A stretch of DNA of 64,000 nucleotides from Escherichia coli (GTDB lineage Bacteria > Pseudomonadota > Gammaproteobacteria > Enterobacterales > Enterobacteriaceae): the NCBI RefSeq assembly GCF_013315695.1, contig NZ_CP054353.1. The stretch is one strand, 5' to 3'. A program made the position numbers and the translations under genes. The notes beneath the pieces are model-generated. The model saw only the letters and a program-made list of their open reading frames with translations. It was not told the origin of the DNA and made no database searches. The first letter of the stretch is position 1, and the number at the start of each line of letters is the position of its first letter. Below, one piece after another: positions 47,100 to 61,856 of this stretch.

Positions 47100-50000
47100 C
47101 TACCCGTCGGCGTAAGGTATCAGCGGCTGTGGCGGTAAATCCATATCGCCCTGCCATCCGGCGGCGGAATACCGTACATAGAGCTGGAAGTGACTTGGCG
47201 CATAATCCTTCGCTTTCTGGATATCAATCGCCGTACCAACAAACCAGTTGGACGTGACGCGACGTTCAAGTAATGCCCGTGCCGTGTAACCAAAACCCTG
47301 ACTGCTGCTACCACTGTTGGATTGTTGTGCTGCTTCTTCCTGCCAGTCGCTCGGGATCAGGTTCATCAGCGGATAACGCGGCATGGTTTTGGTCCGTGAG
47401 TGCGACCATGAACCTGAAGCCCCCAGCTCCCACGACCAGTTTTCCGTCCGCTCGCGCCACATCACCGGCACCGCAAACGACAGGTATTCCTGCGGGCTGT
47501 AGTAACCGCCCTGACCCAGTGAGTACTCACTCAGGTCTTTGTCGTAATGCCAGATCATGTTGTTCAGGCCAATGGTAACGCGGCGGTTATTCTCGTTGAT
47601 AATTTTATAGTAATAGCCCGTCATCCAGCGCACGCGCCAGTTATCTTCGACATTTTTACCGGTTAACTGATCACCGCTAAGCGATGCCCAGACGCCGTTT
47701 GCTTCACCTTTATCGTAACTCAGACTTAGCCCCACGCCGTCGGCACGCACGCCGCCCCATTTTTTCCCGGTGTTGCCCGGAGAATCTTTCTGCCCGCCGA
47801 AGGCCAGCATTGAGCTGGAGACAGGCCGACGATGTGCGTCAACGGTATAGCCGAGTGGGCCGATACTGTCGCTGTAACTGACAGCGCCGACCACATCCAC
47901 CACGTTGAATCCCATCGGTGTGGTGCCAATATCCCAGCTCCAGGTGTCGTTGCGCCAGCCAACCGCCACGCTTGTGCCGGAGTCTGACTGACTGCGGTTG
48001 CCGCTACACTCCTGCAGCGTACAGGTTCCCCAGTTATCATCCCATTTGCCATCGGCATTAGTGGAGAAACTGCCGACGTTCATATTGACGAAATCACTGC
48101 GAAAGAACATCCGACCGTCAGAATACGGCGCATCCACCTGCAACATGGTGGTATGTGCTTTCAGGTCAGAATAGCCGCCAGTGCCGTTTGATCCCCAGTA
48201 GTCGTGCTCCAGGGTGACATTGAGATCCTGCTGACGATAAAGATCTGCCGCATCGCTGCGCACGCCACGTTTCAGCCAGTCATCCTGCTCATCATTACGG
48301 GTAAGGCGGGTAAAGGTGTCGTTATCCTGCGGACGTGTCGTCGTCACGCCGGAAGCGATCATCGCATCTTTGTAGGTTTCCAGCGCCTGTTGCGGTTCAC
48401 CCGCCTGCGCCTCAAATTTTGCGCCATCGCGCAGTACCATCGCGCTTTCCATCGACGGCGGCTGAGATTTTGCCTGCAGGATCAGCCTGTTAAATGTCTG
48501 CTGTGCCGCTGCGGTATCGCCAAGCTGTGCCTGCACCAACGCCACGCGCCGCTGAGTGTTCAGCGAGGCGTTATCGGTGGCGGGAAGTTTCGCCAGTTGA
48601 CTGCGCGCCGCGGCTTTGTCGCCTGCGGCAATATCCACTTCCGTCAGGCCAAGAATGGCATCGGCGTTATTCGACTCCCGCGCCAGCACATTCTGATACG
48701 CCGTGCGGGCGGCGGTGTAATCGCGTCGCTGTTGTGCCCAGTCAGCCAGCGTAAGATCAATGCGCGTGGAAGGCGGTTGCTGGCGTAGCATCGCCTCCGC
48801 ATCCTGTTCTTTGCCACTGTCACGCAGGCGATTAGCCGTTTCCAGAATCTGATCGCTTTGCAGGCGATTCACCAGTTCCTGAATGTTGCCGTTCCACCGG
48901 GCGCGCGGCAGATTGTTAATATGCGCCAGCGCCGCCCGCTCCTGATCGTGACCGGAGAGATACAGTCCGTAAGCGTAAACCTGGTCCGGGTCGTTCGGCT
49001 TCTGTTGCGCCAGGTTACGCATTAACGTATCAGCCTGGGTACGTTGTCCGGCCTGCCAGAGATCCTGCGAAAGCCGGTAAGTTACCCACACACTGCCGGG
49101 GTCCAGCGCCAGTCGTTGCCGCTGAAGTGCTGCCGCCTGCGCCCATTTACCCTGATTTTCCAGCGCCTCCGCCTGCTGCGATAAGCGATCGTTTTGCAGA
49201 CTGCGTTCGATATCATCAATACTGCGCCGCTGGCTGGCAGAAAGTGACGCAATAAACGCTTCAGCTTTTTCCGGCGATTGCTGCCGATAAATGTTCGCCA
49301 GTCCACGCACGGCGTTAGTGTTGCCGCTGTCCATACGCAGGGTCTGCTGATAATAACGTTCGGCGGCGGGGTAATCTTTTCGCGCCATTGCCACATCACC
49401 CAGCCCCAGCACCGCATAGCTGTCGGTGTTATCGACATTGCGTGCCTGCAGGAACAGGCGTTCCGCCTGATCAGGATTGTTCGCTTTCAGTGCGGCATCG
49501 CCCTGTTGGATCGCCAGCCAATAACGGTTCACTTTCAGCAAACTGTTCCATTTGTCGTTGTTGCTGCTGTGCGGGCCCAGCGCGAGGGCTTTTTCCAGAT
49601 TTGCCACCGCATTCGCGCGATCGCCTTTCTGTGAATAAGCCTGGCCCAGCGCCCCCAATATTGCACCAGAGTTTGGGTTATCAATATTAAGTTTTTTCAA
49701 CTGACTAATTGCCTCGTTGCGACGAGATGCAATTTGCGCCACTGCACTCCAGTATTCCAACGCCATGCCGACATCTGACGGTACTCCGTTAAATAGCTTG
49801 TCATAACTGACAATAGCCTCCTCGTATCGCCCGGAGATAGCTTGTAAACGCGCCATTTGCAATGCCTGGCGCCCCTCAAGCGAAGAAAGTCGCATGACCG
49901 TACGCGATGCTTTATATATTTTTGAATCTGGGGCGATCAGAGAAAGTCTGGCAAGTTGTTTGTGTGCTCCGTCAATATCCCCCTTGCGAAGCAGATAGCG

Positions 50001-50207
50001 AAACCGAGCCGCAACGACATCAGGATTATTGGGCTCCACCAATTCAAGGCGATAAAGCGACTGCTCCACCAGTTCTTCACGGTGAGAGTCTTCTCCCAAT
50101 CGAATCTGTGCCATCAGCAGTTGATAAGCAGTTGGCGTGGCTTTTGCCATCGACATTACCGCCAAACCAAGAGATATGGTGAGTAAATTTAGGGTGAATT
50201 TGTGCAT
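47100..50207 (-). CDS. BcsC-like outer-membrane exopolysaccharide export protein (N-terminal TPR region + C-terminal beta-barrel)
   Basis: About 1035-aa ORF (ATG at 50207; track start 50219 is TTG) with signal peptide MHKFTLNLLTISLGLAVMSMAKA, multiple TPR-like repeats, and a C-terminal region rich in alternating aromatic/Gly beta-strands typical of BcsC barrels. Last gene of the co-oriented cluster. Confidence 0.8.
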   Translation of the reverse strand: MHKFTLNLLTISLGLAVMSMAKATPTAYQLLMAQIRLGEDSHREELVEQSLYRLELVEPNNPDVVAARFRYLLRKGDIDGAHKQLARLSLIAPDSKIYKASRTVMRLSSLEGRQALQMARLQAISGRYEEAIVSYDKLFNGVPSDVGMALEYWSAVAQIASRRNEAISQLKKLNIDNPNSGAILGALGQAYSQKGDRANAVANLEKALALGPHSSNNDKWNSLLKVNRYWLAIQQGDAALKANNPDQAERLFLQARNVDNTDSYAVLGLGDVAMARKDYPAAERYYQQTLRMDSGNTNAVRGLANIYRQQSPEKAEAFIASLSASQRRSIDDIERSLQNDRLSQQAEALENQGKWAQAAALQRQRLALDPGSVWVTYRLSQDLWQAGQRTQADTLMRNLAQQKPNDPDQVYAYGLYLSGHDQERAALAHINNLPRARWNGNIQELVNRLQSDQILETANRLRDSGKEQDAEAMLRQQPPSTRIDLTLADWAQQRRDYTAARTAYQNVLARESNNADAILGLTEVDIAAGDKAAARSQLAKLPATDNASLNTQRRVALVQAQLGDTAAAQQTFNRLILQAKSQPPSMESAMVLRDGAKFEAQAGEPQQALETYKDAMIASGVTTTRPQDNDTFTRLTRNDEQDDWLKRGVRSDAADLYRQQDLNVTLEHDYWGSNGTGGYSDLKAHTTMLQVDAPYSDGRMFFRSDFVNMNVGSFSTNADGKWDDNWGTCTLQECSGNRSQSDSGTSVAVGWRNDTWSWDIGTTPMGFNVVDVVGAVSYSDSIGPLGYTVDAHRRPVSSSMLAFGGQKDSPGNTGKKWGGVRADGVGLSLSYDKGEANGVWASLSGDQLTGKNVEDNWRVRWMTGYYYKIINENNRRVTIGLNNMIWHYDKDLSEYSLGQGGYYSPQEYLSFAVPVMWRERTENWSWELGASGSWSHSRTKTMPRYPLMNLIPSDWQEEAAQQSNSGSSSQGFGYTARALLERRVTSNWFVGTAIDIQKAKDYAPSHFQLYVRYSAAGWQGDMDLPPQPLIPYADG

Positions 50208-51968
50208 ACCTGGACTCAATCAGGTGTTAACTCACTTTTTATTAAAAAATGAATAAGCGCAGTTCCCTGCCCTGCCTGTTTAAGGCCAGAGCAGAGAGCT
50301 ACAAAGATGAATTACTGTTGATGAGGATTCAGACGACGATGGCTAATGATGCGTAGCAGACGCCAGACGACCCACGCCAGAAGCACCACACTCAGCATTG
50401 CCATTCCTGCCAGCAAAACAGGATGTTTCGCTAACATATATTGCGCGCGCTCAATCCAGGGAAGATGCCCCACATAATAGGTATCTCCAACCCGTAAACT
50501 ATCGACACCTGATTCACGAATAACCGCAACTGAGCCAAATATATTGCCACGTTTTGCACTATTAATTAGCGCATTATTAAGTAACTCGTCACCACGTGCC
50601 CCCTCGGTCATTAATGCAATTACGCTACGTTGGGGATGATATGGAGACTGGAAACCAACCACCGCGGCCATTGGCGATGGAGAGATCATGCTTGTTTGTG
50701 TTTCAGTTTTTTGGTTGTTTTCATCTGTCATAATTTGTGCGTTATCAGAGTGCCGCATTGGCGTTTTTACCCAACTAGCGGTTGCATCAATGAGCAGATT
50801 AATTTGCTGCTGACCTGCAAATTCTTGCGGAATTGCCCCTATCAGCAGGATGTCTGCATCCTTATTCTGGATGGAGCTTATATCATCAGTAACTGTCAGA
50901 TTAATTGCCGGAAATCCGGTTTGAGCACCAATCAATCCAAGGGTATTTAGCAATATTTCAACCTGCGTTGTACCAGGATGTTCAGGCATAACGATGACTG
51001 TTTCAGATAAATCGGCCATACGGCTAAAAGGAAAGCCTGAACTAGCAAAGGCGCGTAAATCTGGCATGGCGATAAAGTGATGATACTTTGAAAAATCGAT
51101 AGTAGAATCATCAGCAATAACTGCATGGTTATTCAGAGGCCGGGAAATAATACAACTCCCGTCATCAGTACTCGGTATCGTATTAACGTACTCAAAATTG
51201 AATCGTAATTGATTAAGTGCCCCCAATGTCAGCGCCGGAATGGTAATTTTATTATTGCTATCTGACAATTCTTGCAATAACGGTAAATGTAATAGCAGTC
51301 GATCAGTAGTCGAGCGCGGGCTTGGGCGAAAAGATTCAATGTACTGATTATTAAGATTAACATCAATACGAGAACCGCCTACCATTGGCGTGGTATAGCG
51401 ATAGTTAATCTTCATATCAACCCCACTATTACGTAACAGAAAGAGATCAGGCGGCAAATTGAATGAAACATTAATTGCTGCGATCTGCAGGGCACTTGCC
51501 TGTAACTGTCCTTCATAGTTTTTAAGCTCTGCGAAAGTTACAGGACGATCAGTGCGAACCCAGTTTGGCGCATCATAAGGTTTGCGTGGCAGCAGTGGTT
51601 TCACGTCATTTACAACCACACTATCGCCGCGAAACAGTATATTTCCCTGAGCGAGACCTTTTGCTGCCTGTAATAAATCTTTGTCATCGCGGCCCCAAAT
51701 TACCAACAATTTGACGAAAGGATTTTGTGGATGGTTAATCATCTTAATAACAGGTGCATTCACCAACGGATGATCACGCAAAAAGTCTGGCCGTCTATTG
51801 TTAGTGGCAAAGACTATAGCATTGCTTTCCGGTAACTGATTATAAAAAACTGGAAATTGATGACCACGCCACCCCGATTGCGAACCAAACCACGAAGCGA
51901 CAATTGCAGATGCTTGCTGCAAACCAGCCTCCGGTGGGCCAGCAAAAACCATCGGCAATGTATTAGTA

Positions 51969-51977
51969 CGGTTATCT
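51969..51977. repeat. 9-bp IS1 target-site duplication, left copy (CGGTTATCT)
   Basis: Identical 9-mer at 52746-52754 flanks the other end of IS1. Confidence 0.9.
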
Positions 51978-52032
51978 GGTGATGCTGCCAACTTACTGAT
52001 TTAGTGTATGATGGTGTTTTTGAGGTGCTCCA

Positions 52033-52308
52033 GTGGCTTCTGTTTCTATCAGCTGTCCCTCCTGTTCAGCTACTGACGGGGTGGTGCGTAACGGCAAAAG
52101 CACCGCCGGACATCAGCGCTATCTCTGCTCTCACTGCCGTAAAACATGGCAACTGCAGTTCACTTACACCGCTTCTCAACCCGGTACGCACCAGAAAATC
52201 ATTGATATGGCCATGAATGGCGTTGGATGCCGGGCAACAGCCCGCATTATGGGCGTTGGCCTCAACACGATTTTACGTCACTTAAAAAACTCAGGCCGCA
52301 GTCGGTAA
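52033..52308 (+). CDS. insA: IS1 InsA (transposition inhibitor / N-terminal part of InsAB' transposase)
   Basis: 91-aa [45 protein letters not shown]... matching IS1 InsA. Confidence 0.95.
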
Positions 52309-52730
52309 CCTCGCGCATACAGCCGGGCAGTGACGTCATCGTCTGCGCGGAAATGGACGAACAGTGGGGCTATGTCGGGGCTAAATCGCGCCAGCGCTGG
52401 CTGTTTTACGCGTATGACAGGCTCCGGAAGACGGTTGTTGCGCACGTATTCGGTGAACGCACTATGGCGACGCTGGGGCGTCTTATGAGCCTGCTGTCAC
52501 CCTTTGACGTGGTGATATGGATGACGGATGGCTGGCCGCTGTATGAATCCCGCCTGAAGGGAAAGCTGCACGTAATCAGCAAGCGATATACGCAGCGAAT
52601 TGAGCGGCATAACCTGAATCTGAGGCAGCACCTGGCACGGCTGGGACGGAAGTCGCTGTCGTTCTCAAAATCGGTGGAGCTGCATGACAAAGTCATCGGG
52701 CATTATCTGAACATAAAACACTATCAATAA
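52227..52730 (+). CDS. insB: IS1 InsB frame (expressed as InsAB' via -1 frameshift)
   Basis: 167-aa ORF in the -1 frame relative to insA, matching IS1 InsB. Confidence 0.9.
52282..52290 (+). promoter_or_regulatory. IS1 programmed -1 ribosomal frameshift site (TTAAAAAAC)
   Basis: The A6C slippery motif lies in the insA/insB overlap, where the IS1 frameshift site is known to be. Confidence 0.7.
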
Positions 52731-52745
52731 GTTGGAGTCATTACC

Positions 52746-52754
52746 CGGTTATCT
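52746..52754. repeat. 9-bp IS1 target-site duplication, right copy (CGGTTATCT)
   Basis: Exact repeat of 51969-51977. Confidence 0.9.
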
Positions 52755-53455
52755 CGCGGATCAAAGAATGGCACAGGAAAATATGAAAGATCATTTTGCA
52801 GATTGAGTTTCTGGACGACCAGACCAAGTTCACTGTTACGTCCAATATCAAGCCACAAGTTATTGCTGGTTGAGATTTCACAGCTATTCTGATAATGGCC
52901 AATTAATTCAAAACGCAAACGATTAAAATCCGAGAAATACAATGGGTTAAGCGTTATTTCCGCCAACGTTTTTTTTCCCAGTTGTTCTTTGGTAATCGGT
53001 AATACTCCCATCAACTCATCATTAAGATAAACTTTAAGCTGCGACTGAACGGGGATCAATGACGGTGACGGAGTATATTCAAGCTTTAGTTTTGCATCTG
53101 AAACTATCTCATCACTGCGCATACCAAATTCAATATACCCCAGTGGGTTGACACCATTCAAAACGATGTTACCAGGCGCTGGTGATATTTGTGTAAATGG
53201 AAGTTTAAAATGATAAGAGGAATCTTTCGCATAAACAGAGACGTTAGACTTCTCTATAGCGGGTAATACTATCCCGGAGGGAGACTTATGGATTATGGTA
53301 TCTAAAGCTGATGCAGCATTTGCCTGGTATAACCATAAAAACCCTAAGCAAATTATTGCAGTAATAAATTTTAAATATTTTCTTTCCATTTTAAAAATTT
53401 CAAGAGACATAATCAACACAAATAATATATTTAGTTGGTTAAATATAATCTAAAA

Positions 53456-55570
53456 CTAATTCTCACGACTATTTTTTAGTGTCCGCAGAATATAAAAAAT
53501 CATATTGTAATACCCTTTAAGAGAGATGATACATACGTCAAAAAAGCTCTTTAGTATATTATCTTGCTTAATTTTATCATTCCACTCTTGCCATAATGAA
53601 TCACGTGAAAATGTTACTCTGACATAATTAATATTCTGTTCATAAGTCATTGGCAAAATCTTCAGACCAATTTTATTTTTGTAAGCATGAACAACTTTTA
53701 CAGGAATATCACATTCCCCTTTATTATCACTCAGATAAAGAGACAAATGCTGAGTTTTTTCGATTTCTTTTACATCGGAGATGTGATCAACAATAACCCC
53801 CAGGCCACCTTCGGAGAAATCAATAACAGAACAGGGATAGCACCGTCCATCTGCTAGTTTTATCACACCTTTAAAAGAAACATCTATCCGAGGAGAAAAG
53901 CGGACCTGCTTTTGTTCAATAGAGACTGCCAGGGTTGCGCCAATAATAATTGTATTATAAATCAACCAAATCAAACAAAATAAATTTAATATAACAAGAT
54001 GACCTTGCAATCTATAAATATTAATAACACCTATTATTAGTCCAATTAAATTTAAAATAGCAAAAATAAGATAAGGATATGAGATTCGCCAGTCAACAAA
54101 TTTATTTTTTATTAACCCGCCCTTGGCAGTAACGTTAAATCGCCCTTTAGCTGGCGCAAGTAAGGCAACAAGCGTTGGTAGTGTAATATACCAGGCCAGA
54201 ACCATTTCATAAATTTCATTCCAAAATGAATGTCTGTATTCACCCTGAACTCTTGAGTTAGTAAAAATAATCACAAATAGATAAGGTAGAACATAAGACA
54301 TAATATCTGCAACCGACGCATCTATCAAATTAACTGAAAAGAAAATAGGACATAGTGGCGCGAATAAAAAAATCAGCCGTGGAACCCCTGATAAAAAATG
54401 CATCATGCTACTGAGATAGCAAAGACGCTGTGATAACGTCAGCCCTTTGCCCAATAATGGATTATCAATACGTAAGATTTGGATCATGCCCCTGGCCCAC
54501 CGTATTCGTTGTCCGATATGAGCAGACAATGTTTCGGTAGCAAGTCCAGCGGCCAGAGGATAGCGAAGATATGCGGAGCTGTACCCTGCACGATGCAAGC
54601 GTAGCGATGTATGCGCATCTTCCGTTACCGTTTCAACTGCAATGCCTCCAACCTCATCTAATGCAGACCTACGGATAACCGCGCATGAACCACAAAAAAA
54701 TGAAGCATTCCATGTATCGGTGCCATTCTGGATTAAACCATAAAAAAGATGTCCTTCATTTGGTTTCTGCCGAAATTGCCCCAAGTTTCGCTCAAAAGGA
54801 TCGGGAGAGAAAAAATGATGTGGTGTTTGCAGCATCGATAGTTTTTTATCGGCAATAAACCAGCCCATCGTTTTTTTTAAAAAAGAAACGGAAGGAATAT
54901 GATCACAATCGAAAATAGCAACAAATTCGCCGTTAGCTATTTTAAGCGCATTGTTTATATTTCCAGCTTTCGCATGTTCATGCGTTTCTCTTGCAACATA
55001 GCAAATACCTGACTCATCAGCAAATTTCCTGAATTCGTCTCTGGCACCATCATCAAGAAGCCAGACATGTAATTTATCTTTTGGCCAGTCTAAAGCCAGC
55101 GCTCCATAAACTGTATTCTTCACGACAGTAAAGGGTTCATTATATGTAGGTATGAATATATCGACATCAGGCCATTCTTCTTTATTATCTGGTAAAGGTA
55201 TGCTTTCCCTGTTCAATGGGAAACAGACCTGAAAATAACCAAGTAATAAAACAAACCATGCATACGTTTCAGCAGCTAACAGCGTCAATGAAAAGAAGCT
55301 GTCAGGAAACTCATCAAGAATAACTGAAGAAGAGTAACGCCACCATAGATACCTTGTGGATATAAGTATACCAATACCCATTAAGATCAGGGTAATCATC
55401 CTTCCCCTGAGCAAATTGAGGAGAAAAACAGAGATACAAATGATAATCGAGAATAGTGTTTGTTGATAAAAACCGAGCGGCTGTTCAACAATTGACAAAA
55501 AAACAAAACATAGCAATATAGCAACAAAAAGAAAAATTTTGTTGTATATTTCTTTATTTTTTAAATTCAT
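53456..55570 (-). CDS. BcsA-like processive family-2 glycosyltransferase with C-terminal PilZ (c-di-GMP-binding) domain
   Basis: 704-aa ORF with eight or more predicted TM helices, GT2 motifs (LLDDGARDEF, FDCDH, TVTEDAHT, QRIRWARG, FFCGSCAV) and PilZ motifs (RFSPR = RxxxR; DFSEGG = DxSxxG). About 35% GC. Confidence 0.88.
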   Translation of the reverse strand: MNLKNKEIYNKIFLFVAILLCFVFLSIVEQPLGFYQQTLFSIIICISVFLLNLLRGRMITLILMGIGILISTRYLWWRYSSSVILDEFPDSFFSLTLLAAETYAWFVLLLGYFQVCFPLNRESIPLPDNKEEWPDVDIFIPTYNEPFTVVKNTVYGALALDWPKDKLHVWLLDDGARDEFRKFADESGICYVARETHEHAKAGNINNALKIANGEFVAIFDCDHIPSVSFLKKTMGWFIADKKLSMLQTPHHFFSPDPFERNLGQFRQKPNEGHLFYGLIQNGTDTWNASFFCGSCAVIRRSALDEVGGIAVETVTEDAHTSLRLHRAGYSSAYLRYPLAAGLATETLSAHIGQRIRWARGMIQILRIDNPLLGKGLTLSQRLCYLSSMMHFLSGVPRLIFLFAPLCPIFFSVNLIDASVADIMSYVLPYLFVIIFTNSRVQGEYRHSFWNEIYEMVLAWYITLPTLVALLAPAKGRFNVTAKGGLIKNKFVDWRISYPYLIFAILNLIGLIIGVINIYRLQGHLVILNLFCLIWLIYNTIIIGATLAVSIEQKQVRFSPRIDVSFKGVIKLADGRCYPCSVIDFSEGGLGVIVDHISDVKEIEKTQHLSLYLSDNKGECDIPVKVVHAYKNKIGLKILPMTYEQNINYVRVTFSRDSLWQEWNDKIKQDNILKSFFDVCIISLKGYYNMIFYILRTLKNSREN

Positions 55571-55643
55571 GGTACGTAACTATTCATTAATACTATGATT
55601 TGACTTTAAAAAAACGAATGAATGATGTCATAAAAATAAAATT

Positions 55644-56984
55644 TTAACACCAGGTTACCTGTGCTCTTCCATTTTGCTTACTTTTGTATAATCGTTCATC
55701 TGCCAGTAATTTCAACCGTTCAATGTTATTCATGCACTCGTCAGTATTGGCAACACCAATACTGCAACTACAATTCAATCCACCTATTGAGAAATGGACT
55801 ATTCTGTGCAAAATTCTTGATAATTGATTTATATCTTTATCATGATAAATAATAGCGAACTCATCGCCACCAAATCGATAAACTTCACCTTTGCTGAGGG
55901 GTAATTCATCCTTAATAAGATTAACAAGTCTTATTAGTACTTCATCACCAAATAAATGACCAAACTTGTCATTAATGGTTTTAAACTTATCTACATCAAA
56001 CAGGCATAAATATCCAAAATCCTTACTCAGCATCCTGATATTTTTATCAAAAACACGACACCCAGAAGCTCGCGTCAATGCATCGTAAGTCCCGGAATCA
56101 TATATTTCTCTAATTGCATCAATCTCTTCAACGTTAAAGAATAGATTTTTTCCATGCAAATTATAATGATTATTCGATAATATAGATTCTTTTTCTGACT
56201 TACCCTTATTTATGATTTTTTGCATTAATTTAATGTAATGAAAATATATTAACCCCGCAGAAATCGCCGATGTGAAAACAAAAAACAAGCACATATAAAT
56301 ATACTTATCTTTTTTATAGGCAACAATAAACATTACTTCCGGGATATAAGAATAAGCAAGAGTGATCGCTGATTTCTCAAATACAGCATCATTAATCAAA
56401 AAATCATCACCCGCGATTTTCTTTTCATTATCATTGATATCATAAAATGAGACATATATATTTTCCCGTTCACCTGACTGATTTCTTATCAAAGCCAAAT
56501 AACGTTCAGGATCTACCACTGATATCAAACTTGTTCGTTTCGAAATAGGATGAGCATAATAAATATAATATTTATTATTTAAACTAATAATCCCTCTTTC
56601 AAAGATGTTACTTATACGGATAGAAGAAACTATGCCGTCACAAAAGTTATCCCCTTCCGTTGTAACTTTGGCGCATTTACCATCGCTAATGATATAGGGA
56701 CCTAGATCATAAATATATTCTGGTTTTTGAAAGTCAGCAAAACTATTGCGTATCCTTTTTAACAACTCTTCCGGAGAAATATCTAACCCATAAAATACAT
56801 TATTAAATACTAAGCGCCGATACTCAGACACATTAGCTATAGCAAGCCCACTATCTATGATCGATACCTTTACCGAATTGACTCGATCTTTAACGTAAAT
56901 AGTATACAGATAACATGTCATTACAGAGACACATAAAAAATACAAAAAACAGATCCCTGCTGCCTTTTTTTTATACTTAAACAT
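55644..56984 (-). CDS. membrane-anchored diguanylate cyclase (two TM helices flanking a periplasmic domain + GGDEF domain); DgcI/YliF-like by architecture
   Basis: 446-aa ORF with GGDEF-domain motifs DALT, FDVDKFKTINDKFGH, RFGGDEFAII and ADERLYKSKQNGR; no RxxD I-site five residues upstream of GGDEF. About 30% GC. Confidence 0.85.
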   Translation of the reverse strand: MFKYKKKAAGICFLYFLCVSVMTCYLYTIYVKDRVNSVKVSIIDSGLAIANVSEYRRLVFNNVFYGLDISPEELLKRIRNSFADFQKPEYIYDLGPYIISDGKCAKVTTEGDNFCDGIVSSIRISNIFERGIISLNNKYYIYYAHPISKRTSLISVVDPERYLALIRNQSGERENIYVSFYDINDNEKKIAGDDFLINDAVFEKSAITLAYSYIPEVMFIVAYKKDKYIYMCLFFVFTSAISAGLIYFHYIKLMQKIINKGKSEKESILSNNHYNLHGKNLFFNVEEIDAIREIYDSGTYDALTRASGCRVFDKNIRMLSKDFGYLCLFDVDKFKTINDKFGHLFGDEVLIRLVNLIKDELPLSKGEVYRFGGDEFAIIYHDKDINQLSRILHRIVHFSIGGLNCSCSIGVANTDECMNNIERLKLLADERLYKSKQNGRAQVTWC

Positions 56985-56988
56985 TGTG

Positions 56989-59337
56989 TTATTTTCTTTT
57001 TTTCGGTTTACTGTCTATATGCCACTCTGAAAACGGTAATGGTTTCTGGTATAAATATCCCTGAACATGGGAGAAGCCTAATTTTTGTAATTCTCTGGCC
57101 TGTCTTTCTGTTTCAACACCTTCAGCGATCACTGGCATATTTTCTTCTCGTGCAAGACTAGATATAAAACACACAACCCTGTTAGTTTCATCGAAAATAC
57201 CAGAAGTAAATTCTGAATCAATTTTGATGCTATCAGGTCTAACTTTGTATAATTTTTTCAAGTCAGCTAACCCACTGCCAAAATCATCAAGGGAAATTTT
57301 AATGCCATTTCTTCTTAAAAATTTTATATTATTATAAAAACTATCATTTATATCTTTCATTGCTGACTCGGTGATCTCCAGACAGATTTGTTCCGTATTT
57401 ACGCCAAATTTATTAATTAAATTCAAAACGCGGGTATGGAAATCAAATTCATTTAACTGCCAAGGTGAAACATTGATATGCAGAAGAAATTCTTTCGTAA
57501 TTTCATACTCACGACTAAATGAACCAAATTCACCAATAGCCGTTTCAAGAACAAAATCACCCAGTTCTTTAATTAAGCCAATTTCTTCAGCAACAGGCAC
57601 GAAAACTGATGGTGGTATTGCACCATTTTCAACGGACAACCAGCGGCATAACGCTTCGGCGCCAACAACATTATTACTATCCATATCAACAATCGGTTGA
57701 TATACTAAATAAAACTCACTACTCACAATTGCTTTTTTTATATTTCCAGCAACCCAAACCTTTTGATCAAGTTCATGAGCCTTAATATCATCATAAAATA
57801 TAAATTCAGATTCTTTATTTTCTCGCATAGCTGTTAATGCCAGTTTCAGTTTACCTTCATAAATCGACAAACTTTCCCCTGAAAAAGTTTCACAAATAGC
57901 AACCTTATGAACATAAATATTTCTTATGCAAAAAATATGCTCAGGAAAGTTTAAAACAGATAATCGTTCTATGAACTCTTCACAATGAGTGTGACACAGC
58001 AACAAATATGTTTCAGTAGAAATTTTTATAATATCACAATATTTAGAATACTTTGCTGATATCTTTGATTTTATATCATTAATGATCTCATAAAATTTCT
58101 GACTGCCATGTATAGCCTCTACAAACTCTAATCCATAGATACAAAGCATACCAACTGCTGAATAGGTTTTATTATTAGTTTCAATGACAGATTTGTTGAT
58201 ATAGAAACAACTTCCTTGTTCATAGGAAACAAGATTAAGTAACCGTTCCATCCGCTCTTTGTATTTGTCACTAATGTTATTAATGATTTTTTTGAGCTCA
58301 ATAATCTCACTACTGTCATTTTGCACGATTTCGATTTTATCATTTCGGTATACTGAGCTCGCTAATTTTTTCAGATGCTCAATTAGTTTACCAGAGTCGT
58401 TTCTAACCTTTTTTGTTATCTTTTCAAAAAGGTACCATAATAAACAGAAACAAACCAAACCACATACAAACATCAGTGTAAAATATTTATTTATGTTTGT
58501 GTCTTCTGCTTTTTGATAATGAAAATAATGAAATTTGACATCAGGAAGCCTGGGGAGTGAAATAATATCGTCCGTATAATTACCGTTATTATTACTTATG
58601 TTATAACGTCCAGATGCATCTCTAACAATAAGATGTAACATTGATTGTTCATTACCTACCATAATCCTTTTATTCTGTTCCATAAATAAAATATCTGCAT
58701 TTCCTCCTAATTTGTCCAGGAAATTGCTAAAATATCTTTCATCAAGATCTAAATGAATTAACTTCAGAGCAAATGAATCTTTTTCTGCTTCGGCTGGTCG
58801 TAATGAAAACGAAAAACATTTTTTCCCGGCAATGCCATAGCAGTTATACCATGGTGACCATTTTGAATAAGTCCCTGTTGGTAATTTATTCCAGGGACGG
58901 GATTCAGGATCAAAGTAGTTATCGTTAATTTCACCATCAGGGCTAGTAAAAGCATGACCTGGCTCTGATTGCCCCAAAAATTTAACATCACCATTATCAG
59001 TTCGAATAAAGCTAAGATACTTTCCATTATTTAGCATTATTCCGACTAAATTAACAGAATCTATCTTTTTCATCCGATGAAGAACTGCGCGTTTTATTTC
59101 ATTTTCATCGTGTAACAGATAAATGGCATCTTTTAAAGCATCCGCCTCTTTTTCAACTTTAGAAAAAAAGTTATTCAAATTATTATTGATAAGTATAAGA
59201 TTAATGCGTGAAGAGTTTTCTGCTATTTTTTTATAAAAATCAATGGCTGTAATAAATGATAAAATAATATAGACAGTGACAGCGAATATAAGCGCAGTGT
59301 TAAATCTTGAGTTTAATTTTTCTGTGATGCTATACAT
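56989..59337 (-). CDS. membrane-anchored c-di-GMP phosphodiesterase (periplasmic sensor domain + cytoplasmic linker + EAL domain); PdeI/YliE-like by architecture
   Basis: 782-aa ORF; EAL-domain catalytic motifs are intact (EALCRW, NVSPWQ, EITES, DDFGSGL, KIDSEF, EGVETE, GYLYQKP). Its stop is 4 bp from the dgc start. Confidence 0.85.
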   Translation of the reverse strand: MYSITEKLNSRFNTALIFAVTVYIILSFITAIDFYKKIAENSSRINLILINNNLNNFFSKVEKEADALKDAIYLLHDENEIKRAVLHRMKKIDSVNLVGIMLNNGKYLSFIRTDNGDVKFLGQSEPGHAFTSPDGEINDNYFDPESRPWNKLPTGTYSKWSPWYNCYGIAGKKCFSFSLRPAEAEKDSFALKLIHLDLDERYFSNFLDKLGGNADILFMEQNKRIMVGNEQSMLHLIVRDASGRYNISNNNGNYTDDIISLPRLPDVKFHYFHYQKAEDTNINKYFTLMFVCGLVCFCLLWYLFEKITKKVRNDSGKLIEHLKKLASSVYRNDKIEIVQNDSSEIIELKKIINNISDKYKERMERLLNLVSYEQGSCFYINKSVIETNNKTYSAVGMLCIYGLEFVEAIHGSQKFYEIINDIKSKISAKYSKYCDIIKISTETYLLLCHTHCEEFIERLSVLNFPEHIFCIRNIYVHKVAICETFSGESLSIYEGKLKLALTAMRENKESEFIFYDDIKAHELDQKVWVAGNIKKAIVSSEFYLVYQPIVDMDSNNVVGAEALCRWLSVENGAIPPSVFVPVAEEIGLIKELGDFVLETAIGEFGSFSREYEITKEFLLHINVSPWQLNEFDFHTRVLNLINKFGVNTEQICLEITESAMKDINDSFYNNIKFLRRNGIKISLDDFGSGLADLKKLYKVRPDSIKIDSEFTSGIFDETNRVVCFISSLAREENMPVIAEGVETERQARELQKLGFSHVQGYLYQKPLPFSEWHIDSKPKKRK

Positions 59338-60436
59338 ACTGGTGTTCTGACTAAAATGTTATCAATAATTTCGATATTACATTATATAAAGTTCGGTATA
59401 TGAAATGGTATTAATACTCCTCTTTATGATTTTCTGAATTAAATGATCTCCATTCTGTAAATATATCATAATGAGAAGATTGATTTTCTCTTAATTTACC
59501 AAAGTTATTATCATGCTTATTACTTTAACCAGAATGACATTATCATATATAGCGTTTATACTTTTGCATCTTCCACCCACGCTACCGCCTTTCGTTAATT
59601 TATCAACGAAATAATTTAGATATGAAAAAATCAATATATGACGCCTAAGCTATCACATTATGCATAGTTGCGACATTCACCTCTTTAATTATCCCAAAGA
59701 GGTATTAATGTGAATTCTCTATCATCCATTTTGCTGATTTATCTTTTTTCAGTCATGAGCAATCCGACTCTCTTAGCCAAAATAAATTAATAACCTTAAA
59801 ATGAGGTTTAATCAGAAAGTAGTAGCCACAGCTTGACTATTAAGACTATAAATTAGCCATAACGATGGACAGATAAATATGTTAATGAATACATGTTCAA
59901 TAAAACAATAAGGCACAACGCCAGGCCACCATTTTATTTTAAAAATAAAAGGCTGTGAACTATGCCAGGTATAATCTGATTCTATCGAGAGAGAATTTTT
60001 GTAAGTTACAAATACTGCAAAAGACACATTACACAAAATTTTTAACCACACAAACACCTTGTGTTCTGTATAACAGAACAATAGCTGTGGTCATTTTCAG
60101 CAAGTTTAACTAAAATTATCAAGAATTTTTTTTGATGTATATCAAAAACAATAGTCTTCGCGCATCCGTTACTGCTTAACATTTACCCACAAAGTTCATA
60201 TTTTCACCACACATAATCGTTCACTTCAGAACTTAAAATAATAACTTGCAAAATAACCAATAATTAAAACTATCACTGCATCTAAAAATAAAGATTAAGA
60301 TAACTAAAATTCGTATTATCACGGCATCGTTTATCGCCACCCGTCTCTTAAGAAAAATTTAACTTTGCTATTATCAGTCCTCTCCGAATTTCTCTTCTAT
60401 TTACTGCGATAACCCCGGCGAACCGGGGCATGATGA

Positions 60437-61856
60437 CTATTTCTTATTCGCTTTACGCGCAAGTAACGGGAATATCAGCCCCAGTCCAACCAGGACAAAT
60501 GGCGTCGCAATATTCAGCGCCAACTGAAAAGTCCACTCTGCGGTGAAGGCTTCCATTTTCGGGAAAATCCCTGTCAGGCAGGCAAAAGCGGTAAAGGTAA
60601 AACACCAGATCCCGACAGTCATCGCCAGCGGCCTGTTACGAATAAAGACATACTCTGGTTTATATTTCTGCGCCAGGCGAACGACTGCAATAAATGCAAC
60701 AAATACCCATAAATAACGCAGCGGCATCACTACCGAATTAAGGTTCAACAGCCATTTATAGAGATTGTTCATATCACCAATGCCGAGAGTCGGCAGCATA
60801 ATCAGAATCGCCACCAGTACCAGGGTCAGAAAATAGCCATTAACGGGCGTACCAGAAGCGTTGGTACGACATAAACTGGCTGGAATATATTTGCTATCAG
60901 CATCGCCTAATAGTACTTTAAGCGGCGCATCAATCGAGAATACCAGCGCAGCTACTTGTCCCAGGGTATTCGCAATGGCGTAAATCACCATTAAAGTATT
61001 ACCCATGTTGTAATACTCGCCCAGCTTCTGAAAGGCGTAATACTGACCGTTGGTCATTAAGTCATCCGGGATATTACGCGAATCAAACATCATCCCCATC
61101 GCCAGCGAGCCCAGAATGGCACAAACCGCAACCATCACCGCCAGGCATAACATCCCTTTTGGAAATTCTTTTCCTGGGTTGCGCGTTTGATTAACGTAAG
61201 GAGAAATCTTCTCTGCTCCGCCAACCGCGAAAACCAGCATTGAAATAGTGGTAATGTAGGTAAAGTCGATATGAGGAATGAACGTTTCCCAGGTAATGTT
61301 TGTGGTCGCAATATGCACTTCAGTAATTGCAGGCGCGGTTACCGCCATCGCCACATACAGGAGCGACATAACAAACATCGCAATCCCTGCCACAGAACCG
61401 ACGATTTTCAGCGATTTCATACCGCGTGAAGCAACCCACATAAAGAAGATAAACAGCACCAGCGTTAACCCCTGTAACGCTACGACTGAATATTCTTTGA
61501 TTAACGAACCGTCGCCTTTCATCGCCCAACCGAGCGCAATCAGTATTGCCTGGGGTTTTTGTGCCAGATAGGGAATATGCACTACCCAGTAGGTCCACGC
61601 GGCGAGGTAAGCCAGTCCGGGTCCCATCGTGTGTTTAATCCAGGTACTGACCCCGCCCTTCCCATCTTTGAAGGTCGAGCCTAACTGACCAACAATTAGC
61701 GCATAAGGTGTGAAATAGAGCGCAAAGATAAACACCCATGAAAAACCCCTGGTTGGCGTAGTTATTAACAACGTTGCCAAAACCCCAGACAGTGATAAAA
61801 GACATCAGCGCAATGTTGTACCATCGCAGCTGTTTTTCCTGAACATTCCCAGCCAT
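60437..61856 (-). pseudogene. ycaM: APC-family amino acid/polyamine transporter gene with a frameshift near the 5' end
   Basis: The N-terminal 37 codons (MAGNVQEKQLRWYNIALMSFITVWGFGNVVNNYANQG, from ATG 61856) are in one frame and the remaining 447-codon ORF (from 61780) in another; the frames switch at an A5/T5 homopolymer at 61741-61745. Confidence 0.7.

Follow-up and report, generated by a model that had tools for sequence, protein, structure and literature searches.

RfaH is the dedicated anti-terminator of a few foreign enterobacterial operons, i.e. those for the lipopolysaccharide core, O-antigen, capsule, haemolysin and conjugation pili. Here, we describe a 64,000-nt stretch of Escherichia coli chromosome (contig NZ_CP054353.1 of assembly GCF_013315695.1; hereafter the window), in which a 1099-nt non-coding spacer upstream of an accessory cyclic di-GMP (c-di-GMP) and cellulose operon, pde-dgc-bcsABC, contains the operon polarity suppressor (ops) sequence of such operons. 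In the described systems, ops is present in the leaders of all RfaH-controlled operons and is itself a consensus pause (PMC5995543), with GGCGGTAGnnTG as the RfaH ops consensus (PMC9562583). Its bases G4, G5, A7 and G8 are essential for RfaH recruitment, C3 and T6 contribute, and the T11-G12 dinucleotide induces the pause; the targets of RfaH are devoid of Shine-Dalgarno sequences (PMC5995543).

The closest described gene clusters are the accessory bcs2/bcs3 clusters of Escherichia chromosomes and plasmids, whose genes and phylogeny have been reported (Hosseinpourlamardi et al., bioRxiv 10.1101/2025.05.09.653004). They represent the same module as that of the window (YliE-like CHASE9-EAL, YliF-like GAPES2-GGDEF, bcsABC), and the words RfaH, ops, JUMPstart, FNR, intergenic and upstream are absent from the text of that report. 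The paralogous core pair of E. coli K-12, pdeI-dgcI (yliE-yliF), likewise has a start without a Shine-Dalgarno sequence (+0.9 kcal/mol) but, unlike the window pair, is preceded by a short gap (177 nt, after gsiD) holding neither ops nor an FNR box. With the known RfaH operons, the window operon shares that it is long, foreign, AT-rich and polysaccharide-making, and that its first genes lack Shine-Dalgarno sequences; unlike in those operons, the first two genes encode enzymes of c-di-GMP turnover, and a cellulose-type glucan is the product. Thus, RfaH anti-termination is a known kind of mechanism, yet its application to accessory cellulose/c-di-GMP modules appears to be new, as the literature searched contained no report of RfaH control of c-di-GMP enzymes or of a cellulose-type glucan module.

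The spacer is real and module-specific, and most probably a regulatory leader. Judging from its sequence, it likely combines a promoter region with a long 5′ leader that recruits RfaH for the horizontally acquired, ~12.5-kb AT-rich pde-dgc-bcsA-bcsB-bcsC operon, with a probable oxygen input via FNR. Three features are central to this proposal:

59338–60436, minus strand: the whole non-coding spacer, island-specific, predicted to provide pde-dgc-bcsABC with its upstream control region and 5′ leader
59578–59589, minus strand: ops, GGCGGTAGCGTG, at which RfaH is predicted to load and the polymerase to pause; sense (non-template) strand, 252 nt ahead of the pde start codon
59590–59611, minus strand: RNA hairpin UUUCGUUGA-UAAA-UUAACGAAA, ending right at the first base of ops

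The ops element and its hairpin

The sequence GGCGGTAGCGTG is the sole ops match in the window, even with one mismatch allowed. Base for base, it equals the ops12 published by Zuber et al. 2018 (PMC5995543); it also fits the consensus and contains all recruitment bases (C3, G4, G5, T6, A7, G8) as well as the pause dinucleotide T11-G12. The same 12 nt occur on the sense strand of the untranslated ops/JUMPstart leaders of E. coli waaQ, rfb, hly, kps and tra. The distance from ops to the start codon amounts to 252 nt in the window and 117–282 nt in related clades, compared to 95 nt for waaQ and 87 nt for rfb (rfbB) in MG1655.

For comparison, we aligned the spacers of the window type, of a second E. 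coli type (L002) and of E. fergusonii. Among 5426 complete E. coli genomes, nine possess the spacer, six with at least 98.9% identity to the window and three with 73–74%, at nearly equal length (1097–1100 nt in the E. coli clades). In E. fergusonii, the module resides at another chromosomal locus, behind a TetR-family gene, and is again preceded by non-coding DNA (1085 nt), which assigns the spacer to the module rather than to the insertion site. Five features were left by the alignment: the FNR box, a σ70-like promoter, the hairpin with ops, a 90-nt block and the last ~60 nt before the ATG. Between the window and E. fergusonii spacers, the ops region forms the strongest colinear high-scoring segment pair (HSP; E = 3e-6).

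Upstream of pdeI-like genes, five clades share the 11-nt core GGCGGTAGCGT without any change, and it represents the sole invariant run of their alignment; at position 12, four clades have G and the pL013 clade has T. The element is retained in the chromosomal copies of three Escherichia lineages and also precedes plasmid-borne pdeI-like genes, at –282 on pYLMB30b and at –117 on pTB402. In the two plasmid clades, the flanking DNA is unalignable and the N-terminal regions of the proteins are merely 26–27% identical to that of the window (core PdeI, 29%). By our own calculation from base frequencies, a G-rich 12-mer of this kind would arise in a 31% GC gap with a chance of ~2e-6, and its retention in five clades excludes a chance origin. 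In the pYLMB30b clade, ops reads GGCGGTAGCGTT (L013, 8560–8571), with T for G at position 12. As substitution of G12 abolishes the U11 pause, not RfaH recruitment (PMC5995543), the signal of this clade may be weaker.

Other identities for the conserved element were considered. A CsgD box, a σ54 promoter, an NsrR half-site, an ArcA box and a tRNA fragment all failed to fit the invariant core. An upstream open reading frame (ORF) initiating from the GTG inside ops would span 29, 11, 24 or 4 codons depending on the clade, is missing in pL013 and would yield unrelated peptides; we do not regard it as a gene.

In every clade, a stem ends 0–1 nt 5′ of ops, with differing sequences: UUUCGUUGA/UUAACGAAA in the window, UUUCGU/ACGAAA in E. 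fergusonii, UCGUGUCAUU/GAUGAUGCGA in pL013 and UUCCA/UGGAA in pL014. A positional shuffle test returned P values of 0.006 (window), 0.034 (E. fergusonii), 0.001 (pL013) and 0.31 (pL014), and of 0.15 for both waaQ and rfb, whose JUMPstart hairpins in MG1655 end at the 5′ edge of ops just as the window hairpin does. We regard the hairpin as a likely, if unproven, companion of ops. With its 3′ end expected 11 nt behind the U11 pause position, it might act as a pause hairpin.

Promoters, FNR box and translation starts

Upstream of ops, the following elements may direct transcription, and a further one surrounds the pde start:

59931–59959, minus strand: σ70-like promoter TTCACA-N17-TAAAAT, with a predicted start at ~59924 and hence a leader of ~587 nt
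60132–60145, no strand assigned: perfect FNR consensus box TTGAT-N4-ATCAA, reading TTGATGTATATCAA on the plus strand
60103–60108, minus strand: candidate –10 hexamer TAAACT, read from the sequence, with a putative start at ~60096 if used
59338–59400, minus strand: conserved proximal leader, near-invariant among the E. coli clades, with a start site lacking a Shine-Dalgarno sequence (…CAGAACACCAGT ATG)

A simple promoter scan found sites at chance level (8 vs. 8.7 expected). No promoter-like site other than its best-scoring one (10/12 matches), TTCACA-N16/17-TAAAAT, recurs in each of the seven chromosomal spacers, including that of E. fergusonii; the distance from this site to ops is 317–338 nt. 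Counted from the predicted start at ~59924, the window ops is located at about +335. The N17 spacer and –10 hexamer of this promoter overlap an A/T palindrome, TTTTATTT-TAA-AAATAAAA (59932–59950), which is partly kept in E. fergusonii (AAAAATAAAAT).

The FNR box is matched once in the 64-kb window, vs. 0.12 matches expected. In the spacers of the window type, the L002 type and E. fergusonii, its half-sites are invariant while the N4 varies (ATAC, CTGC, TTGC, TTAT). Class II FNR sites are centred near –41.5 from a start, class I sites at –61.5 or further upstream. The TAAACT hexamer would put the box centre at about –42.5, a class II arrangement, and the equivalent TAAATT of the L002 type at –45.5; activating FNR sites have been documented at –40.5 to –45.5 (PMC3688515). 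The perfect TTGAT-N4-ATCAA and, in the window clade, the –42.5 position within this range are shared with FNR-activated promoters such as those of dmsA, narG, frdA and focA-pflB. Unlike in these, the distance from the box to a –10 element differs among the clades of the window module, the site is embedded in AT-rich DNA, where H-NS often masks FNR sites, and the only promoter common to all clades lies ~215 bp downstream of the box, which is at –214.5 to –217.5 from its start. Both candidate starts (~59924 and ~60096) are upstream of ops; as the start site is predicted, transcription through ops is something we infer.

The anti-Shine-Dalgarno duplex energies of pde, dgc and bcsA are +0.2, –0.9 and +0.4 kcal/mol, respectively, vs. 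a median of –3.3 kcal/mol for the ORFs of the window. A strong Shine-Dalgarno-like sequence, AAAGAGGAG, does occur ~80 nt before the pde ATG (59417–59425, minus strand), without a suitably spaced start codon. The E. coli clades have kept it and E. fergusonii has not; a function as ribosome standby site or as CsrA-type site is conceivable.

From the observed elements, their orientation, their conservation between clades and the missing Shine-Dalgarno sequences, the following course of events can be envisaged, in which the start sites, the dependence on RfaH, FNR binding and its sign, and any involvement of H-NS are what we infer. Transcription would start upstream of 59589, either from the conserved promoter (59959–59931, start ~59924) or from the FNR-adjacent one (~60096). 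RNA polymerase would transcribe the hairpin and then pause at GGCGGTAGCGTG (59589–59578), where the exposed non-template strand would recruit RfaH, which would displace NusG. By suppressing pausing and Rho-dependent termination, RfaH would allow the polymerase to traverse the AT-rich operon, and it would aid ribosome loading at the pde, dgc and bcsA starts that lack Shine-Dalgarno sequences. The FNR box would add an oxygen-dependent input, most likely anaerobic activation.

If so, ops in front of a mobile pde-dgc-bcsABC module predicts a c-di-GMP pair and a second cellulose synthase to be part of the RfaH regulon, and offers an explanation for how operons that are AT-rich and lack Shine-Dalgarno sequences could be expressed at all once transferred. 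In combination with the FNR box, it points to testable conditions (rfaH+, low oxygen) for switching on otherwise silent accessory bcs clusters. A more far-reaching version of this proposal is speculative and, in our estimation, rather unlikely to hold as a whole. Accessory modules would then form an unrecognised branch of the RfaH regulon whose JUMPstart is a variant one, with ops cooperating with whatever nascent hairpin has its end exactly at G1 (11 nt behind U11); RfaH and FNR-sensed oxygen would jointly gate the phosphodiesterase, the diguanylate cyclase and the glucan synthase; and the leader might be processed into a RirA-like small RNA (sRNA) that titrates RfaH.

Readings of the spacer

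The first-pass annotation, made from the sequence alone, had marked this region as the longest non-coding stretch of the window, very AT-rich, with a perfect palindrome, and had suggested a complex, possibly nucleoid-protein-silenced promoter region or an uncharacterised sRNA. Its coordinates were correct: on the minus strand, ycaM terminates at 60437 and the EAL ORF of 782 aa begins at 59337, with 1099 nt in between. Counting ORFs of at least 100 aa, this is indeed the longest ORF-free gap, followed by gaps of 786 and 601 nt, and its GC content is 31.1% vs. 49% for the whole window. As the adjacent pde and dgc are similarly AT-rich (GC 0.29–0.37 in 300-nt windows), low GC characterises the island at large rather than just the spacer. 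The idea that the spacer holds the regulatory signals of the module likewise stood, in that its length and several sequence blocks are kept even at a different chromosomal site; the conserved signals themselves (ops, the σ70-like promoter and the FNR box) had been missed.

The non-coding assignment held across clades, with no conserved ORF and no credible Pfam remnant. One mechanical 89-aa ORF starting with TTG (59812–60081, minus strand) is broken by stop codons in orthologous spacers, and a comparison of six-frame translations between clades revealed no ORF free of stops or frameshifts in all of them. Every frame contains a stop in at least one clade, and indels between clades are not multiples of three. 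Discrete blocks excepted, the spacers are 61–81% identical between clades, vs. 75–92% for the genes. An Rfam scan of the spacer yielded no credible family, the only matches being CRISPR-DR62 (E = 0.28) and a snoRNA (E = 0.65), both at chance level, and terminator-like sites are absent from the inside of the spacer on either strand.

Besides the features named above, two further blocks were noted:

60234–60325, minus strand: conserved upstream block of ~90 nt, CCGTGATAATACGAATTTTAGTTATC...GGTGATAGTTTTAATTATTGGTTATTTTGCAAGTTATTATTTT, presumably upstream protein-binding sites
60413–60428, minus strand: GC-rich hairpin CCCCGG-TTCG-CCGGGG right after the ycaM stop, resembling a ycaM terminator, with no clear U-tract

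The first of these is the most conserved spacer part among the E. coli clades (88–89% identity vs. 61–72% in neighbouring stretches) and lies within the one long HSP that runs colinearly between this spacer and that of E. fergusonii (E = 5e-7). It has repeated GTGATA(A/G)T motifs, and the CRISPR-DR62 match, probably a chance one, falls inside it. Readings as Fur, IHF or CRP sites gave no convincing match.

Several points weigh against control by RfaH and FNR. The spacer lacks the upstream half of the 39-bp JUMPstart (the first GGTAGC copy) and has an unrelated AU-rich hairpin in its place; ops is often accompanied by JUMPstart, but its definition does not depend on it. The whole-segment folding energy of hairpin plus ops is not significant (z = –1.4 to +0.1). 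At ~215 bp upstream of the conserved promoter, the FNR box is too far away for classical activation, the –10 hexamer beside it is weak, and the spacing between the two varies (–42.5, –45.5; the arrangement in E. fergusonii is unclear). The box is missing from the plasmid clades, and FNR sites within H-NS-covered AT-rich DNA are often masked or silent (Myers et al., PMC3688515). The start sites are predictions, and the window-wide promoter scan is at chance level. The cellulose output of the module in this strain is probably lost, since an IS1 copy interrupts bcsB.

Of the other readings, one sees a complex promoter silenced by H-NS, in which the palindrome GTTCTGTATAACAGAAC serves as the operator of a dimeric DNA-binding protein, with no anti-termination involved. 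Foreign DNA of 31% GC is a typical H-NS substrate, and the palindrome is exact (60063–60079), unique in the window and located between the FNR box and the conserved promoter; as RNA, it would form a stable hairpin (–11.6 kcal/mol, z = –3.6). However, 16% of dinucleotide-shuffled spacers contain one or more perfect inverted repeats with arms of 8 nt, and the palindrome, proposed as a key element, proved to be confined to the window clade: the 74%-identical L002 type has TTTGAATATGCAGAT instead, and the E. fergusonii spacer is unalignable at this position, while other elements are invariant in both. This reading also leaves the invariant ops 12-mer unexplained, and the sole one-mismatch copy of the H-NS high-affinity motif TCGATAAATT in the spacer is not conserved, the motif count itself being uninformative. 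We therefore regard the operator model as very unlikely and the palindrome as lineage-specific, probably irrelevant, and the wrong target for the binding assays that had been proposed. H-NS silencing of foreign DNA with 31% GC is plausible as a possible modifier and fits with RfaH control, so that on its own it is no true alternative. An RNA product of the spacer is a further candidate, be it an independent sRNA, e.g. one under control of the FNR box that runs across 60234–60325 in the direction of ycaM, or a RirA-like sRNA containing ops and processed from the leader. The conservation of the 60234–60325 block among E. coli clades would fit the former, as would a promoter-like TTAACA-17-TATTTT on the plus strand (60176–60204), which would put the FNR box at about –72; for the latter speaks that the annotation of MG1655 places the sRNA rirA across the waaQ ops (L038, 2667–2739), from which it follows that ops leaders can yield stable small RNAs. 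Against an sRNA stand the lack of an Rfam family and of an intrinsic terminator-like site in the spacer, results that also went against the independent sRNA suggested in the first-pass annotation, as well as plus-strand promoter hexamers that are not conserved in the L002 type and a conservation of the block in E. fergusonii of only about 62%. We consider such an RNA improbable.

It is extremely unlikely that the spacer is a decayed gene, e.g. for a PilZ-type c-di-GMP receptor on the plus strand, or neutral junk kept by linkage. In a Pfam scan of all stop-free spacer pieces of at least 35 aa, a 54-aa plus-strand piece (59949–60110) did weakly match the c-di-GMP-related PilZN3 (E = 0.005, 17.4 bits), but this score is 10 bits under the Pfam cut-off of 27.4 bits, and pseudo-translations of the L002, L005 and E. 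fergusonii spacers gave unrelated, equally weak matches or none, so that we judged the match a chance one. All frames are interrupted by stops, and the lengths of the indels between clades are not divisible by three. Neutral decay would not be expected to leave discrete invariant blocks such as ops, the half-sites of the FNR box and the hexamers of the promoter. Homology to a degraded gene, one of the findings named in the first-pass annotation as refuting its reading, was not reproducible for any family in these searches. A further view is that ops is real but not used by the chromosomal RfaH, being a relic of a plasmid-borne ancestor that relied on a plasmid RfaH paralogue, or a strong consensus pause site only. 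Related modules do occur on large plasmids (see also bioRxiv 10.1101/2025.05.09.653004), plasmid RfaH paralogues with ops-like sites exist (PMC11880322), and ops by itself pauses the polymerase (PMC5995543). Yet the window element equals the E. coli RfaH ops at 12/12 positions, as in waaQ and rfb, and is maintained in the chromosomal copies of three Escherichia lineages, making this view highly improbable. Recruitment of RfaH to a long leader thus remains the preferred reading.

Operon, island and distribution

The RefSeq annotation of strain MSB1_4I, which is 100% identical, was mapped onto the window, and domains were assigned from Pfam. In MSB1_4I, the gene order is ycaM (frameshifted), the gap, the EAL gene, the GGDEF gene, bcsA, bcsB (split by IS1), bcsC and pflA. 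The operon served by the leader thus consists of:

47100–59337, minus strand: the operon as a whole, ~12.5 kb
56989–59337, minus strand: pde, CHASE9-EAL, the 782-aa ORF
55644–56984, minus strand: dgc, GAPES2-GGDEF
53456–55570, minus strand: bcsA
about 50312–53410, minus strand: bcsB, interrupted by IS1
47100–50207, minus strand: bcsC

Based on their CHASE9-EAL and GAPES2-GGDEF domains, the first two genes are paralogues of PdeI/DgcI (YliE/YliF). Both are intact, and an IS1A copy at about 52033–52730 cuts bcsB into two pseudogene pieces, whereas strains such as N3 and E7-1N7 have an intact bcsB.

On the other side of the spacer, ycaM (60437–61856) is annotated as frameshifted in MSB1_4I. The CCCCGG-TTCG-CCGGGG hairpin after its stop is invariant in all E. 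coli clades, and E. fergusonii has a different hairpin after the flanking TetR-family gene; as it is absent there, the hairpin is to be counted with the flank rather than with the module. In a sensitive blastn search, the ycaM stop is the exact point from which ordinary E. coli becomes similar, at ~84% identity. Over its last ~400 nt, ycaM diverges progressively from ordinary E. coli, with identity climbing from 86% at the stop to 100%. This gradient, together with the homology boundary, indicates that the island and the 3′ end of ycaM entered together by recombination.

Close relatives of the phosphodiesterase were found in E. marmotae and E. fergusonii. A scan of genome contigs for further lineages added one close relative, a scan of viral contigs found nothing, and a metagenome scan returned only clades already represented, which showed the same picture. 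Searching plasmids with the whole spacer by blastn revealed no homologue. The distant homologues P0010 and P0011 are situated at contig ends and thus come without upstream DNA for comparison, and contig ends likewise cut off the regions upstream of distant pde-dgc pairs (37–40% identity) in L008 (GCA_004793115.1), L009 and L010. These distant pairs adjoin an integrase, a TraI-like relaxase, an IS200-type transposase or bcsAB, which marks the module family as mobile beyond the clades studied here.

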